IMG/VR virus record: IMGVR_UViG_2531839675_000018
DNA: 4,332 nucleotides
Direction: 5' to 3' (one strand)
Source: a virus
Taxonomy: Duplodnaviria; Heunggongvirae; Uroviricota; Caudoviricetes
Within the stretch, counting starts at the first letter, position 1. Each line of letters starts with the position of its first letter. Below, in pieces: positions 2 to 4,332 of this stretch. The position numbers were made by a program, and so were the translations under genes. The notes under the pieces were generated by a model, which saw nothing but the letters and a program-made list of their open reading frames with translations, made no database searches and was not told where the DNA came from.

Positions 2-298
2 GTATCAAAAGCCGGTGAGCGTTATCGCCGGGCTGTGGCGCTTATTGTTCGCCAGCAGCGGCTGAAATTAAGCCTGTCCGGACGGCTGGCAATAAAAATT
101 ATTGCAGAACCACCGGATAAGCGCCGCCGTGACCTGGACAACATTCTGAAAGCACCGCTGGATGCGCTGACGCATGCGGAAGTGCTCATTGATGACGAGC
201 AGTTTGATGAAATCAATATTGTGCGCGGTCAGCCTGTGCCAGGTGGACGGCTGGGCGTGAAGATTTACGAAATCAGAGGTGGTAACGATGGCGCGTGA
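2..298 (+). CDS. rusA: Holliday junction resolvase RusA, C-terminal part (5' end lies upstream of the window)
   Basis: The reading frame is open from base 2 to the TGA at 296-298. The translation (…[30 protein letters not shown]…[11 protein letters not shown]…) aligns closely with E. coli RusA as I recall it (…[30 protein letters not shown]…GGRLELTITEM…). The ORF track starts it at an internal Met at 35, but the frame continues to the window edge. Confidence 0.88.
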
Positions 299-659
299 TA
301 TCCAGATGGTTCTTGAGCGATGGGGGGCATGGGCAGCAAATAATCATGAAGATGTAACATGGCCCTCGATAGCTGCTGGTTTTAAAGGATTAATCCCGAC
401 TAAAGTGAAATCACGTCCTAAGTGTTCTGATGATGACGCCATGATAATTTGTGGTTGTATGGCACGATTAAACAAGAATAATCAGTATTTGCACGATTTG
501 TTGGTGGATTATTACGTAGGTGGAATGACATTTATGGCTCTTGCACGTAAGCATAGATGTTCTGATGGGCTTATTGGTAAAAGGCTTTATAAAGCGGAAG
601 GTATTATTGAAGGAATGCTTATGGCTCTGAATGTCCGGTTAGATATGGATATGCGGTAG
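288..659 (+). CDS. Phage late-gene antiterminator Q (QuuD / Phage_antitermQ-like), 123 aa
   Basis: The ORF lies directly after rusA, as in DLP12 and other lambdoid prophages. The N-terminus [25 protein letters not shown] resembles QuuD-type Q proteins from memory, and the Cys-rich segment ([12 protein letters not shown]) fits the family. I prefer the ATG at 288 (GAGG at 275-278, about 8 nt upstream) to the GTG at 279 used by the ORF track. The start overlaps the rusA stop by 11 nt, suggesting translational coupling. Confidence 0.75.
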
Positions 660-750
660 GGATATATAGTGATGAGGGTTATGTTTTCTGTGTTTATAAT
701 TAACATGTTTATTTTTTGATGGTCATGTATTGTGGAAGGTAGATAAAATG

Positions 751-779
751 TTGCCTGGTGAATTGAAAATATTGATAAT
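751..779 (+). promoter_or_regulatory. Candidate sigma70 promoter (possibly the phage late promoter pR' region) upstream of the CPBP gene
   Basis: TTGCCT at 751-756, a 17-nt spacer, and GATAAT at 774-779. It sits in an AT-rich intergenic region about 90 bp after the Q stop, which is where lambdoid phages place pR'/qut. This is motif matching only. Confidence 0.3.
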
Positions 780-810
780 CAATCTTCATCATTAAATAAA
801 AGGAGTGCTT

Positions 811-1629
811 ATGTGGATTGTGTTAGTACTGTCACTGTCAACTCTCAGTTGGCATAAGGTAGTGGCTTTTTCATTGTTGACGGTGTCTGTTGTCCTGGCT
901 GTGCTTAATGATATTATTGATTGGTCGGTGTTATTTTTTGTTGCTACAATCGTTTTTTTTATTATTTTGAAGTTCAACTGGAAATATAACGCCTGGGCTA
1001 AATCTATATATGAAGTTGGCATAGTTTTATCAGCCATAGCATTATTTTTCCATCTATGGCCAGGGTTTCACAATCCTGTAGTGCTAAATTCTGTTACTGT
1101 TGGCCCTCAAAGTACTCCCTATACAATGTATTTTAATTTTGATAAAGCGCTGGTGCCATTTTTGTTAGTCCTGTGTACATCTTCTTTGTTTAAAAAAGAA
1201 GTAAAATCAGAAGTGTCTTTGTGGAAGTGGGGGGCTCTGTCGCTCTCTGTTCCTCTTATCCTGTTTTTGGCTGTTTTTTTTGGTGGATTAAAGCCAGAGA
1301 TTCATTTTCCTGAGTGGTTGCCAGAGTTTATATTGGCTAATTTGTTTTTTGTGTCTCTGGCAGAGGAATCATTATTTAGAGGGTATATTCAATCACGGCT
1401 ATCAGAAGTAACGTCTCCATTGGTTGCATTAATTGTGGCGGCTTTGTTGTTTGGTTTTTATCACTATTCAGGTGGTGCTTTACTTGTATTATTTGCCACG
1501 TTATCTGGTGTTGTGTATGGATTGTCATGGATGTGGAGTGGGCGTTTGTGGGTTGCCACCCTTTTCCATTTTGGTTTGAATCTGTGTCACTTGTTATTCT
1601 TTACCTATCCATTTTTAAAACATAATTGA
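811..1629 (+). CDS. CPBP family intramembrane metalloprotease (CAAX protease / Abi, PF02517-like), polytopic membrane protein, 272 aa
   Basis: The protein is highly hydrophobic with several predicted TM helices. It carries the three CPBP signature motifs in the canonical order: EExxxR (EESLFRGY), FxxxH (FGFYH) and HxxxN (HFGLN). AGGAG at 801-805 lies 5 nt before the ATG at 811, so I prefer this start to the track's GTG at 805, which overlaps the SD. The gene is AT-rich with ATA and CTA codons. Confidence 0.8.
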   Translation: MWIVLVLSLSTLSWHKVVAFSLLTVSVVLAVLNDIIDWSVLFFVATIVFFIILKFNWKYNAWAKSIYEVGIVLSAIALFFHLWPGFHNPVVLNSVTVGPQSTPYTMYFNFDKALVPFLLVLCTSSLFKKEVKSEVSLWKWGALSLSVPLILFLAVFFGGLKPEIHFPEWLPEFILANLFFVSLAEESLFRGYIQSRLSEVTSPLVALIVAALLFGFYHYSGGALLVLFATLSGVVYGLSWMWSGRLWVATLFHFGLNLCHLLFFTYPFLKHN

Positions 1630-1770
1630 TTTTTTCTATGGTTTTAAATTTATAAGACTGAAAAATAGCAGGACGTGACATTTGCATGAAAAATATGCAC
1701 GGCAAAGCATTTACGTACGTAAAAAATCAGGTATGCTGTTAAGAGTGGTTATTTCGCCGCATAGCTTGAC

Positions 1771-1792
1771 CCCGCCTCTGAGCGGGTTTTTT
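1771..1792 (+). terminator. Rho-independent terminator candidate
   Basis: CCCGC (1771-1775), loop CTCTGA, GCGGG (1782-1786), followed by TTTTTT (1787-1792). The middle GCGGG can alternatively pair with CCCGC at 1796-1800. The stem is short (5 bp). Confidence 0.5.
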
Positions 1793-1915
1793 GTGCCCGC
1801 AAAGTAGCGCAGTGCGTTAAATGTGCTGGTAGTTATTAATACAGGTCTTTCAGCTTGCTGGCTTTTTCGACAAGAGTTATTGGTGTGTCACGTTAACCGG
1901 AAAGGGTAAAAAGAC

Positions 1916-2155
1916 ATGCTGAAACAGCAGGATATGACAGAAACCGCCAGAGTTGTGTTTGATGAATTAAGCGTCACCGAACCGGCGACGGTCGGGGAGA
2001 TTGCGCAGAATACGTACCTTTCACGCGAGCGCTGCCAGTTAATACTGACCCAGCTGGTTATGCGGGTCTGGCAGACTATCAGTTCGGTTGTTACAGACGC
2101 CTTCAGTCCTGAAGGCTTTTTTATTTGTGGTAAATGGGCGGCTGGTGGGTGTTAG
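1916..2155 (+). CDS. Small hypothetical protein (79 aa), possible winged-helix DNA-binding protein (PapI/FaeA-like pattern)
   Basis: An SD-like AAGGG lies about 9 nt before the ATG at 1916. The segment VVFDELSVTEPATVGEIAQNTYLSRERCQLILTQLV has the helix / xxTxxEIA / recognition-helix pattern of small winged-helix regulators such as PapI or FaeA. The similarity is by eye only. It sits 94 bp upstream of, and co-oriented with, the AraC-family gene. Confidence 0.45.
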   Translation: MLKQQDMTETARVVFDELSVTEPATVGEIAQNTYLSRERCQLILTQLVMRVWQTISSVVTDAFSPEGFFICGKWAAGGC

Positions 2156-2183
2156 CGGCACCTGTCAGTCCTTTGCTTATGTG

Positions 2184-2214
2184 TTGATGATAATTTACCT
2201 TTTGGGGCTATAAT
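2184..2214 (+). promoter_or_regulatory. Candidate sigma70 promoter for the AraC-family gene
   Basis: TTGATG at 2184-2189 and a perfect TATAAT at 2209-2214. The spacer is 19 nt, which is longer than optimal. It lies in an AT-rich region 36 bp upstream of the start codon. Confidence 0.3.
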
Positions 2215-2249
2215 TGAACTAACCAATTGCTAATGAAAGTAAAATTATA

Positions 2250-2963
2250 ATGGTTGTTGTCTGTTCAGTTATCATGGTTTGCTCCCCAATTAATATTTTT
2301 CTTGAAAAGGATACGTTGTCACTTAAGCCCGGCTCAGTCGTTCTGGCCACCAAATGCATCAGGGCGCTTTTCCTTATGCATTATGGCAAAGTTAAAATTT
2401 TCGATATAAACCATTCCATAGTAAGTCAATATCTGGAAATTCAGCATAAGCTGACAAGAACTCATCTGACTGACGTTCCGCTTTATCTGTCACTGGAACC
2501 CAACAACCCTGCGTTGGCTGAGGCTTTAATTACCAGCCAGAGATTTTCCGGAGATACCACGGATATGTTTCTTATGATGGCATGCCTGTCGCTGTTTGAA
2601 TCAGATGAACGGATATTATTATTTTTAAGTGGATGTTTATCCAGTATAAGTGCCAAAGTCAGGGCGATAATTCAGACAGATATATCAGCAAGCTGGACGC
2701 TTGGTGCGATTGCGTTACGCCTGCATATGAGTGAGAGTTTGTTAAAGATAAAACTGAAAAATGAAGGGCACATGTTCAGTCGCTTGTTGCTGGAAGAGCG
2801 GATGCGTGTTGCTGTCAATATGTTATGTTCCCGGCATGGATATGGACAGGCTGTAGCAGAAAAATGCGGTTATTCAAGCTGGTCCTACTTTATTTCTGTA
2901 TTTCACCGCTATTATGGCTTCCCGCCAGACAGATATGTATCCAGGCAAGGGCTTGATTATTGA
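2250..2963 (+). CDS. AraC/XylS-family transcriptional regulator, YdeO/GadX-like (prophage-encoded Psr/PatE-type regulator candidate), 237 aa
   Basis: The C-terminal region has the AraC-type HTH (…WTLGAIALRLHMSESLLKIKLK…AEKCGYSSWSYFISVFHRYYGFPPDRY). The N-terminus MVVVCSVI… and blocks such as ISESLLKxKLK and AExCGYxSxSYFI match E. coli YdeO as I recall it. By my hand translation the gene has about 7 ATA, 3 AGA, 3 AGG and 3 CGG codons in 237 codons, and it is AT-rich. Confidence 0.85.
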   Translation: MVVVCSVIMVCSPINIFLEKDTLSLKPGSVVLATKCIRALFLMHYGKVKIFDINHSIVSQYLEIQHKLTRTHLTDVPLYLSLEPNNPALAEALITSQRFSGDTTDMFLMMACLSLFESDERILLFLSGCLSSISAKVRAIIQTDISASWTLGAIALRLHMSESLLKIKLKNEGHMFSRLLLEERMRVAVNMLCSRHGYGQAVAEKCGYSSWSYFISVFHRYYGFPPDRYVSRQGLDY

Positions 2964-2991
2964 TTTTCATCTGATTATTATTTTTTGACCC

Positions 2992-3067
2992 AGCCCTTTA
3001 GCTCAGTGGTGAGAGCGAGCGACTCATAATCGCCAGGTCGCTGGTTCAAATCCAGCAAGGGCCACCA
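2992..3067 (+). tRNA. tRNA with anticodon CAU, closest to tRNA-Ile2 (ileX-like, lysidine-dependent AUA reader); ileZ-like phage tRNA
   Basis: Hand-folded cloverleaf: D-stem GCTC/GAGC, anticodon loop CT-CAT-AA, T-arm GCTGG-TTCAAAT-CCAGC, and an encoded 3' ACCA. Overall it is close to E. coli ileX as recalled. It has A:C mismatches at positions 1:72 and 27:43. A Met identity cannot be excluded from sequence alone. Confidence 0.75.
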
Positions 3068-3074
3068 TCACATA

Positions 3075-3151
3075 CCGCCATTAGCTCATCAGGAAAGAGC
3101 GCCAGCTTTCGAAGCTGGTTGCGCGGAGTTCGGGTCCCCGAAGGCGGTCCA
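3075..3151 (+). tRNA. tRNA-Arg (anticodon UCG), atypical
   Basis: Hand-folded cloverleaf: D-stem GCTC/GAGC with GG in the D-loop, a perfect anticodon stem CCAGC/GCTGG with loop TT-TCG-AA, and an encoded CCA at 3149-3151. It is atypical: C1-G72, a mismatch at 6:67, a mismatch in the T-stem, and T-loop TTCGGGT with G where A58 is expected. It could be a functional phage tRNA or a degenerate copy. Confidence 0.55.
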
Positions 3152-3164
3152 TTATCTGTATCCT

Positions 3165-3241
3165 GCGTTGTTAGCTCAGCCGGACAGAGCAATTGCCTTC
3201 TAAGCAATCGGTCACTGGTTCGAATCCAGTACAACGCGCCA
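3165..3241 (+). tRNA. tRNA-Arg (anticodon UCU; reads AGA)
   Basis: Clean cloverleaf: acceptor GCGTTGT/ACAACGC, D-stem GCTC/GAGC, perfect anticodon stem ATTGC/GCAAT with loop CT-TCT-AA, T-arm ACTGG-TTCGAAT-CCAGT, discriminator G and an encoded CCA. Confidence 0.85.
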
Positions 3242-3255
3242 CACTTATTTTCCCT

Positions 3256-3281
3256 GGCTCGCTTTTGCGGGCCTTTTTTTT
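3256..3281 (+). terminator. Rho-independent terminator immediately downstream of the tRNA cluster
   Basis: GGCTCGC (3256-3262), loop TTTT, GCGGGCC (3267-3273) giving a 7-bp stem with one G-U pair, followed by eight T residues (3274-3281). Confidence 0.7.
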
Positions 3282-3478
3282 AAATGTCTCACAATTCAGG
3301 CGGTTGACTGTTGTCTGGTTTGCGGGGAGTTTGTTAAAAGAAACTGGCATGGTGAATCCCCCTGTGCGGAGGGGCAATCAGCGAGTAGGTATATGGGATA
3401 ATCGCGGATTCAGGTGCTGGTACTGAATTCACCGGGAGGCACCCGGCACCATGCAATGGCACATAGCGCCACTCTCCA

Positions 3479-3502
3479 GCCCCTCTCCGGAGGGGCTTTC
3501 TT
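3479..3502 (+). terminator. Hairpin with weak U-tract (terminator candidate, + strand)
   Basis: GCCCCTC (3479-3485), loop TCCG, GAGGGGC (3490-3496) form a perfect 7-bp stem, followed by TTTCTT. Confidence 0.35.
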
Positions 3503-3508
3503 ATGGAC

Positions 3509-3537
3509 AAAAAAAGCCCGCGCAGGGAGACGCGGGC
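3509..3537 (-). terminator. Rho-independent terminator on the minus strand (orphan: no convincing minus-strand gene upstream of it)
   Basis: GCCCGCG (3516-3522), loop CAGGGAGA, CGCGGGC (3531-3537) form a perfect 7-bp GC stem. On the + strand it is preceded by seven A residues (3509-3515), so on the minus strand the hairpin is followed by UUUUUUU. Confidence 0.55.
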
Positions 3538-3605
3538 GGCAAGGAATAAACAACAAAACGTGAAGTAATATTTCAGCTGGCGAATAATATCCGACAGTAA
3601 TCACT

Positions 3606-3628
3606 CTGCGCAATAGCGCGGCCTTTTT
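3606..3628 (+). terminator. Hairpin plus T-run (terminator or attenuator candidate) about 100 bp upstream of the esterase gene
   Basis: CTGCGC (3606-3611), loop AATA, GCGCGG (3616-3621) form a 6-bp stem with one G-U pair, then CC and TTTTT (3624-3628). Confidence 0.35.
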
Positions 3629-3730
3629 CGTATTGCGGGCTGTTGTCTCTCTTCTGCCATTGTCCTGTAACTTCCGGATTTCAGCCCGCTCATCATTTTA
3701 CTCACAATATTATCCCGGCCGGGAGGATTC

Positions 3731-4332
3731 ATGGCATTTAAACACTACGATGTGGTCAGGGCGGCATCGCCGTCAGACCTTGCTGATGCACTTGCGCAAA
3801 AAATTCGTGAAGGATGGCAACCATACGGTGGGCCGTTTTCTTCGTATACGGATGATGGCGCAGCACTTATTCAGGCGATTGTCGCAGAAGGTGATGTGAG
3901 CACACCTGTTGTGGTGAAGCTGACAGGTGGAGAAGGTGCAGTAATCAGCGCCACCAGCGACCCCGGGTATTACTTTGTTGTGGTTCTGGCAGGGCAGTCA
4001 AACGGCATGTCGTATGGTGAAGGTCTTCCGCTGCCGGAGACATATGACCGTCCGGACCCGCGCATTAAGCAGCTGGCGCGTCGCAGTACGGTGACACCGG
4101 GCGGTGTCGCCTGTAAATATAACGACATCATTCCGGCGGACCATTGTCTGCATGATGTGCAGGACATGAGCCGCCTTAACCATCCGAAAGCGGACCTGTC
4201 AAAGGGGCAGTACGGAACCGTGGGGCAGGGGCTGCATATCGCCAAAAAATTGCTGCCGTTTATACCGGCGAATGCGGGCATTCTGCTGGTTCCGTGCTGT
4301 CGTGGTGGTTCAGCGTTCACCACCGGAGCCGA
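3731..4332 (+). CDS. DUF1737-domain / sialate O-acetylesterase (NanS-p-like, SGNH/SASA family), N-terminal part (3' end lies beyond the window)
   Basis: The frame is open from the ATG at 3731 to the window end; it is missing from the ORF track because it has no in-window stop. GGGAGG at 3721-3726 lies 4 nt before the ATG. The translation MAFKHYDVVRAASPSDLADALAQKIREGWQPYGG…YYFVVVLAGQSNGMSYGEG… contains a GQSN block typical of SASA/SGNH esterases. A gene of this type follows the tRNA/stx region in Stx phages (established knowledge). The segment is GC-rich relative to the cargo. Confidence 0.8.
   Translation, partial: MAFKHYDVVRAASPSDLADALAQKIREGWQPYGGPFSSYTDDGAALIQAIVAEGDVSTPVVVKLTGGEGAVISATSDPGYYFVVVLAGQSNGMSYGEGLPLPETYDRPDPRIKQLARRSTVTPGGVACKYNDIIPADHCLHDVQDMSRLNHPKADLSKGQYGTVGQGLHIAKKLLPFIPANAGILLVPCCRGGSAFTTGA

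Follow-up and report, generated by a model that had tools for sequence, protein, structure and literature searches.

A convergent small RNA pair probably fills the interval between the tRNA cluster and the esterase gene in a lambdoid prophage cargo segment

The window analysed here (the whole stretch of 4,332 nucleotides) represents the cargo ("moron") part of the late region in a lambdoid prophage: rusA and the Q antiterminator gene are followed by a membrane protease gene, a small ORF, an AraC-like regulator gene, three tRNAs and an esterase gene of the nanS-p type (Table 1). With prophage Sp4 of E. coli O157:H7 Sakai (NC_002695.2, in which the coordinate equals the window position plus 1176427) it shares 100% identity over positions 73-3678, just two SNPs are found in 3679-3730, and the esterase gene then diverges from ECs_1088 of Sp4. 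Given that none of the complete E. coli genomes in our collection matches the full window at 100%, the window is a mosaic, in which Sp4-like DNA is joined to another esterase allele. The esterase 5' end follows ECs_2972 of Sakai Sp15, not ECs_1088, and the esterase leader region (3606-3783) has 93% identity in classical Stx2a phages (L003 and L009), with the esterase directly downstream. Among the remaining features, the tRNA at 2992-3067 is called Met (CAT) by ARAGORN and ileZ (tRNA-Ile, CAT) in the Sakai annotation, the latter implying lysidine modification. In the AT-rich DNA 3' of Q (660-800), three promoter-like sites overlap one another, and this stretch probably represents the PR' region. 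Terminator-like hairpins are present on the plus strand after the protease gene (1771-1786) and close to where the small ORF ends (2099-2116).

Table 1 Coordinates of the features of the window. Mean pairwise identity refers to eight aligned variants of the minus-strand module.
Feature	Position	Strand	Details	Mean pairwise identity
rusA	35-298
Q antiterminator	279-659
CPBP/CAAX-type membrane protease	805-1629
Small ORF	1916-2155		cargo: small HTH protein
AraC-like regulator	2250-2963
Three tRNAs	2992-3241		ileZ-argN-argO order
Hairpin after last tRNA	3256-3273 (terminator 3256-3281)	+	-13.8 kcal/mol, z -3.2, 7-bp stem, T8
Candidate -10 TTAAAT, plus-strand sRNA	3280-3285	+	read from the alignment edge
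Unoccupied stx2 cassette site AAATGTC	3282-3288		BLAST junctions and sequence read-out
STnc100 match (Rfam RF02076)	3318-3508	+
Hairpin, STnc100 terminator	3478-3497	+	-17.3 kcal/mol, z -2.9, 8 pairs, tail UUUCUUAU
Predicted short EcOnc08 form	3509-3579	-	~70 nt, predicted start
Hairpin, minus-strand terminator	3537-3516 (terminator 3509-3537)	-	-16.7 kcal/mol, z -3.6, tail U7
Block CUUCACGU		-		1.00
GU-rich segment (5-7 nt indels)		-		0.36
Block UUUAUUCCUUGCC		-		0.98
Sigma-70-type promoter	3585-3614	-
-10 hexamer TATTAT	3590-3585	-		0.96
18-nt spacer (length constant)		-		0.63
-35 hexamer TTGCGC/TTGCAA	3614-3609	-		0.86
Longer minus transcript (EcOnc21; EcOnc42 in Sp15)	3589-3780	-	antisense to esterase leader and start codon; approximate 5' end
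Weak hairpin	3606-3621 (element 3606-3628)	+	-9.1 kcal/mol, z -2.1, T5 run nearby
Esterase leader, conserved	3622-3730	+	SD GGGAGGA, then ATG 3731
nanS-p-type esterase gene	ATG at 3731	+

The subject of this analysis is the interval between the tRNA cluster and the esterase start codon (3282-3730), which an earlier note on this DNA had described as rich in hairpins and free of credible ORFs. Both descriptions hold: the three hairpins it listed (the STnc100 terminator, the minus-strand terminator and the weak hairpin of Table 1) are all present, while the hairpin directly after the last tRNA and a match to the STnc100 RNA family, covering about half of the interval, were missing from its list. 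A GC-rich hairpin followed by a U tract, the mark of an intrinsic terminator, is found on the minus strand at 3537-3516 and on the plus strand at 3478-3497. The former has an 8-bp stem (GCCCGCGU/GCGCGGGC) with 7 GC pairs, and none of 200 shuffles folded equally well. Terminator-like sites are concentrated in this part of the window, with 6 in 2900-3900 against 1.0 +/- 1.0 in shuffles; four terminators fall within 380 bp, the minus-strand one standing back to back with that of STnc100. The weak plus-strand hairpin, which overlaps the minus-strand -35, may be a plus-strand terminator or an insulator ahead of the esterase gene. It is degraded or absent in PhiR5_2, phi296, ACN002 and N64, where TTGC(G/A)(C/A) nevertheless persists.

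The ORFs of the interval are 32-77 aa long and start with TTG, GTG or an unsupported ATG, five of them (43-68 aa) gave no Pfam match at E<=1, and homologous copies differ within them by indels (1, 5 and 7 nt). PGAP makes a single call in the interval, a pseudogene described as 'partial, missing C-terminus' (3337-3462, minus strand) and antisense to STnc100. RefSeq/PGAP makes this call in several genomes (L001, 6096-6221; L002; L015, 276-407), and PHANOTATE places three small minus-strand ORFs on phage phi296; all of them look like spurious calls over sRNA genes. Some pipelines do annotate hypothetical proteins here, and footprints on some STnc100 copies are reported from Ribo-seq of EDL933, with 'tatgggata' in the Shine-Dalgarno column, as would be expected if the interval encoded small proteins such as a 49-aa GTG ORF (3414-3563) or a 58-aa minus-strand ORF (3334-3510). 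The 49-aa ORF, however, would cross both terminators, and the indels, the missing Pfam matches and the truncated state of the only PGAP call argue in the same direction, leaving a coding role the least credible of the explanations considered here.

A scan of all Rfam families identified STnc100 (RF02076) on the plus strand with 138 bits (gathering score 47, E 1.7e-31), the match spanning model positions 1-206 of 206. As the family is present at full length, the hairpin at 3478-3497 is the terminator of the STnc100 RNA. The window copy has the core, the terminator and the position of the family (after the cargo and directly upstream of a sialate esterase gene), and its central variable insert is in the short form (191 nt matched, compared with the 206-nt model). 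STnc100 also goes by the names EcOnc05, EcOnc27 and sRNA103. The plus-strand RNA is the EcOnc05 of Tree et al. 2014 (PMC4104026), related to PasD, which was detected on the plus strand of Sp4 as an Hfq-CRAC peak and by a northern blot at ~222 nt. The window STnc100 is the Sakai Sp4 copy in sequence, and window 3376-3410 is exactly the EcOnc05 northern probe in reverse complement. Published qPCR primers for STnc_100 (PMC12370729) match 3348-3367 and 3421-3440, RNA-seq of EDL933 has reads on 11 of 11 annotated STnc100 copies, and a 2026 preprint relates STnc100 to PasD1 and PasD2 of EPEC, which likewise lie directly upstream of an esterase gene.

Alignment of 12 STnc100 copies from different phages gave 34 consensus pairs, 5 of them with compensatory changes. 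The closing helix (GCAUGGUG/CACCAUGC) hardly varies, and the same is true of two inner hairpins; compensatory changes are found in the third hairpin and the terminator, and the central insert is variable. At the level of primary sequence, the core GCAUGGUGAAUCCCCCUG.GCGGAGGGGC ... CUCACCGGGAGGCACCCGGCACCAUGC is near-invariant, with free variation in the 5' end, the central insert and the 3' linker. Judged from the alignment, this pattern of conservation would be more like that of a structured protein- or ligand-binding RNA than that of a typical base-pairing sRNA. The upstream limit of the RNA can be approached in a similar manner: in 10 of 11 aligned loci the upstream DNA is unrelated and the copies become alignable from ~12 nt before TCACAATTCAG, and each of these 10 has a -10-like hexamer at the alignment edge (TTAAAT, TGTAAT or TGTTAAAT). 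This suggests a start near 3290-3292. Counted from ~3290 to a 3' end at ~3505, the RNA would measure ~215 nt, as against the published ~222 nt.

The earlier note had taken the minus-strand terminator as the mark of a leftward sRNA, and such transcripts have in fact been published. Table S2 of Tree et al. 2014 (PMC4104026) lists two minus-strand Hfq-CRAC peaks in Sakai Sp4, EcOnc08 (1179938-1180010) and EcOnc21 (1180016-1180101), which correspond to window 3511-3583 and 3589-3674 assuming a zero coordinate shift at Sp4. The assumption agrees with both northern probes, the one common to EcOnc08/21 (AATAATATCCGACAGTAATCACTCTGCGCAATAGC) being identical to the window plus strand at 3583-3617; at Sp5, published Sakai coordinates correspond to +142 in the current RefSeq. 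Any mapping of the EcOnc table onto current NC_002695.2 must thus allow for +142 at Sp5 and 0 at Sp4. The common probe revealed a band of ~271 nt (Tree et al. 2014, PMC4104026). Compared with EcOnc08/21/42, the window module is 100% identical to that of Sp4, matches the probe exactly, lies on the same strand and likewise has its terminator abutting STnc100. The minus-strand RNA is therefore EcOnc08/21, which probably ends at the 3537-3516 hairpin and its U7 tract, 1-3 nt from the 3' end of the other RNA. For Sakai Sp3, 4, 5, 9, 10, 11, 15 and 17, Tree et al. 2014 (PMC4104026) described this arrangement as "convergent sRNAs" located between the cargo and a phage ORF that is conserved, and a later review likewise puts the number of Sakai prophages with such dyads at eight or more. 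No Rfam family scored above threshold on the minus module; anti-hemB (22 bits) and OmrA-B (20.5 bits, cut-off 40) appeared as chance hits below threshold, and were rejected as homologues on these scores. Our literature search for a function of EcOnc08/21/42 found nothing.

The size of the published band raises the question of whether the minus-strand RNA acts chiefly in cis. An RNA of ~271 nt with its 3' end at ~3509 has its 5' end near 3780, within the esterase coding region, and the EcOnc21 peak spans the esterase leader. Such an antisense RNA would cover the ribosome-binding site and start codon and lower esterase or late-gene expression in the lysogen. However, a promoter scan found no promoter-like site near 3780-3830, where the long RNA would start, and the sole promoter-like site found for a long form (3737-3709) gives ~193 nt and not ~271 nt. 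The fold of the 272-nt RNA is as stable as that of shuffles (z -0.05), and ACN002, N64 and PhiR49_2 have no adjoining esterase gene and keep the promoter, body and terminator of the module in diverged form. We therefore regard a mainly cis-antisense role as rather unlikely.

Another comparison is offered by AsxR and AgvB, sRNAs with a tested trans function as sponges of core sRNAs (FnrS for AsxR and GcvB for AgvB). In Stx2 phage II (L003), the Rfam match to AsxR lies at 3421-3473 of the minus strand, directly after STnc100 (3214-3419), and in Shigella phage 75/02 Stx (L005) AgvB takes the same place and overlaps STnc100 by 5 nt. The minus-strand terminator of the window begins at 3509, one base after the STnc100 end, and thus occupies the AsxR/AgvB position. 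Neither the AsxR (RF02703) nor the AgvB (RF02702) model matched, be it across the full window (E<=1) or, in a permissive scan, across 3480-3740 (E<=10); L003 and L005 reach 88 and 56.6 bits, respectively, with these models. The window module and AsxR/AgvB are alike in being convergent with STnc100, abutting it, lying on the minus strand upstream of the esterase leader and binding Hfq. The predicted RNA of the module also follows their layout, in which a specificity region, short and single-stranded, comes before a conserved 3' part, the hairpin and the U tail. They differ in that body and terminator have no detectable sequence homology, that the conserved 3' block of ~42 nt in AsxR/AgvB (AGUAUCUCAUGC..GCCCGAACCCACUCGGGC) is absent from the window module, and that the latter is predicted to be ~70 nt long, as compared to 51-60 nt.

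This predicted length comes from the sigma-70-type promoter located upstream of the terminator. The RACE-mapped start of AsxR in L003 is preceded by the same -35 (TTGCGC) and the same 18-nt spacing, and this likeness, together with the conservation of the hexamers, leads us to predict a primary transcript from ~3579 to 3509, the extent of which agrees with the EcOnc08 CRAC peak. The -35 hexamer matches the consensus at 3 of 6 positions, and a generic promoter scan did not report the promoter. The predicted RNA folds into a single-stranded 5' part, made up of the conserved block CUUCACGU, a variable GU-rich segment and the conserved block UUUAUUCCUUGCC, followed by the terminator hairpin and U7. 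Across the eight aligned variants, which reach down to ~76% identity and of which three have no adjoining esterase gene, both blocks and both hexamers are better conserved than the spacer and the GU-rich segment (Table 1). In nine variants, 97% of the cells of the terminator stem are paired, with one compensatory pair. A separate set of 27 indel-free variants from IMG/VR shows variation at none of the -35 columns and at 1 of 6 columns in the -10, compared with 5 of 18 in the spacer and 5 of 10 in the upstream hairpin arm; the search pattern included both body blocks, so their invariance in this set is no evidence. In L112, a deletion removes one arm of the plus-strand hairpin and keeps TTGCGC.

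The ~70 nt form disagrees with the only size published for the minus-strand RNA, ~271 nt. The published probe lies upstream of the predicted start, so that an RNA of ~70 nt would be undetectable with it, and the two peaks that Tree et al. 2014 treat as one ~271 nt RNA may thus include EcOnc08 as a separate, shorter RNA as well. The plus strand at 3541-3563 (GGCAAGGAATAAACAACAAAACGTG) is C/A-rich, like a GcvB target site, and the minus-strand RNA accordingly has a GU-rich stretch that resembles the R1 seed of GcvB. Nowhere does the minus module vary more than in this segment. In silico, the predicted short RNA forms a duplex of -10.8 kcal/mol with the 5' region of AgvB (13 of 500 shuffles were equally good, which makes this a weak lead), and a search for pairing with AsxR or EcOnc03 found nothing. 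We tentatively propose, at somewhat less than even odds, that the minus-strand terminator belongs to a distinct class of ~70 nt sRNAs without an Rfam family, which would use the slot and promoter of AsxR/AgvB and have its own blocks CUUCACGU and UUUAUUCCUUGCC around a fast-changing, GcvB-seed-like segment, the 271-nt band being another, longer transcript. If so, the AsxR/AgvB slot would be a site where prophages exchange regulatory 'seeds'. What is new here is the conserved minus-strand promoter and the two conserved blocks, which together predict the ~70 nt RNA; that both RNAs bind Hfq in Sakai is already published.

The earlier note had also regarded the whole interval of 450 bp as an empty stx-type slot, possibly a scar left by exchanged cargo, and here the comparison with Shiga toxin phages led to a different picture. 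In four Stx2 phages (L003, L004, L006 and L009), window 3165-3282 and the DNA from 3285 onward align on either side of stx2AB. Homology covers the last tRNA and its terminator, which is thus kept upstream of stx2A, as far as the T-run at ~3281, and resumes at 3289 with TCACAATTCAG; the cassette between these edges is ~1.33 kb and consists of stx2A, stx2B and flanks. From these edges, the empty stx2 site measures ~7 bp and not ~450 bp. The remainder of the interval is found downstream of stxB in stx-positive phages, with 86% identity over 3285-3783 in L004 and 92% over 3347-3800 in Sakai Sp15 (stx1), and in L017 stx2a is followed by the same minus module. Window and Stx phages have a common order at the moron site, namely Q, cargo, the ileZ-argN-argO tRNAs, [stx], the sRNA dyad, nanS-p and lysis genes; in the window the stx position is empty, and the cargo upstream of the tRNAs consists of the CPBP-type protease, the small HTH protein and the AraC-like regulator.

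A deletion scar, in which the interval would be a non-functional spacer with terminators left over after the loss of stx or another moron, would account for the lack of stx where relatives have it and for the left stx2 junction at 3282, precisely where the interval of the earlier note begins. Yet the only junction is the 7-bp site at 3282-3288, no deletion scar or internal junction was found within the interval in alignments to stx-positive phages, and 3289-3730 is present there in the same order. In addition, the interval is conserved in more than 1000 genomes, and contains a full-length Rfam sRNA and published Hfq-bound transcripts. We consider a scar very improbable. Of the earlier reading as a whole, the leftward sRNA stands, as an RNA that had already been published, and the empty slot shrinks to the stx2 junction.

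The sRNA pair is widespread. Of 5426 complete E. coli genomes, 1109 contain the minus module (3509-3605), at 1694 sites in all, and 57 phage records, Stx1, Stx2a and Stx2d phages among them, contain it as well. The module is absent from the representative genomes of other enterobacterial species in our species-representative genome scan. Six matches of the scan in unrelated taxa (Hahella, Hymenobacter and others) were discarded as chance matches to a gapped pattern. Where other loci have an EcOnc08-type module, STnc100 ends 1-3 nt before it in seven out of eight.

Taken together, we consider it probable (roughly 0.88) that the interval is a 'convergent sRNA dyad' of lambdoid prophages in pathogenic E. 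coli, situated between moron cargo and the esterase and lysis genes. The sequence and the published data show that on the plus strand a structured STnc100-family RNA of ~215-220 nt ends at the 3478-3497 terminator, that on the minus strand EcOnc08/21 converges on it, and that related phages carry their Shiga toxin cassettes directly upstream of the two, at 3282-3288. In the lysogen, each RNA would have its own promoter and need no antitermination by Q, and the hairpin-plus-U tails of both could load them onto Hfq. By analogy with AsxR/AgvB, both may act in trans by base pairing, with the variable GU-rich stretch between the two invariant blocks as the presumed specificity region of the minus-strand RNA. 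The back-to-back terminators might, in addition, keep cargo and antisense transcription out of the neighbouring genes when Q is absent.

It is this last role that could also stand by itself, with the hairpins serving mainly as insulators, i.e., as a bidirectional terminator block in the absence of Q, and the RNAs being by-products without a role in trans. Four back-to-back terminators in so short a stretch would fit such a block, the review names no targets for EcOnc05/08/21/42, and StxS sets a precedent for terminated by-products in these phages. Against this stand the conservation of the single-stranded CUUCACGU and UUUAUUCCUUGCC, and of the promoter hexamers, amid diverging flanks, and an STnc100 core that is invariant beyond the terminator as well, with covariation. 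Moreover, both RNAs bind Hfq, and trans functions have been tested for AsxR and AgvB, their equivalents in position. We therefore find insulation as the main role quite unlikely, and retain the convergent sRNA dyad as the preferred reading.

These sRNA pairs adjoin the toxin genes of Shiga-toxin phages and are present in about one-fifth of complete E. coli genomes. AsxR and AgvB rewire core sRNA networks, AgvB conferring on EHEC a growth advantage in bovine rectal mucus, and SNPs in the stx2a-adjoining STnc100 copy ranked among the best predictors of severe disease in a machine-learning study (PMC12711010). For the window itself the value is mainly corrective: the annotation here should show two sRNA genes, and neither a spacer nor hypothetical proteins, the point of stx insertion is narrowed down to within 7 bp, and the conserved minus-strand promoter is a testable addition for EcOnc08.

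Two further loci show how the surroundings of the pair vary. In E. coli N64 (L012), a 'scabin-related ADP-ribosyltransferase' is encoded as cargo (1-392) immediately upstream of the diverged minus module, which places a toxin-like moron in the same slot; no STnc100 match reaches the gathering score in this locus, and no esterase gene is present. E. coli AH21I008 (L002) has two tandem STnc100 copies (2576-2766 and 3044-3253), ~470 bp apart, between the tRNAs and a truncated esterase gene, the first being window-like (99.7% over the matching stretch) and the second a different variant (~83% over its match).
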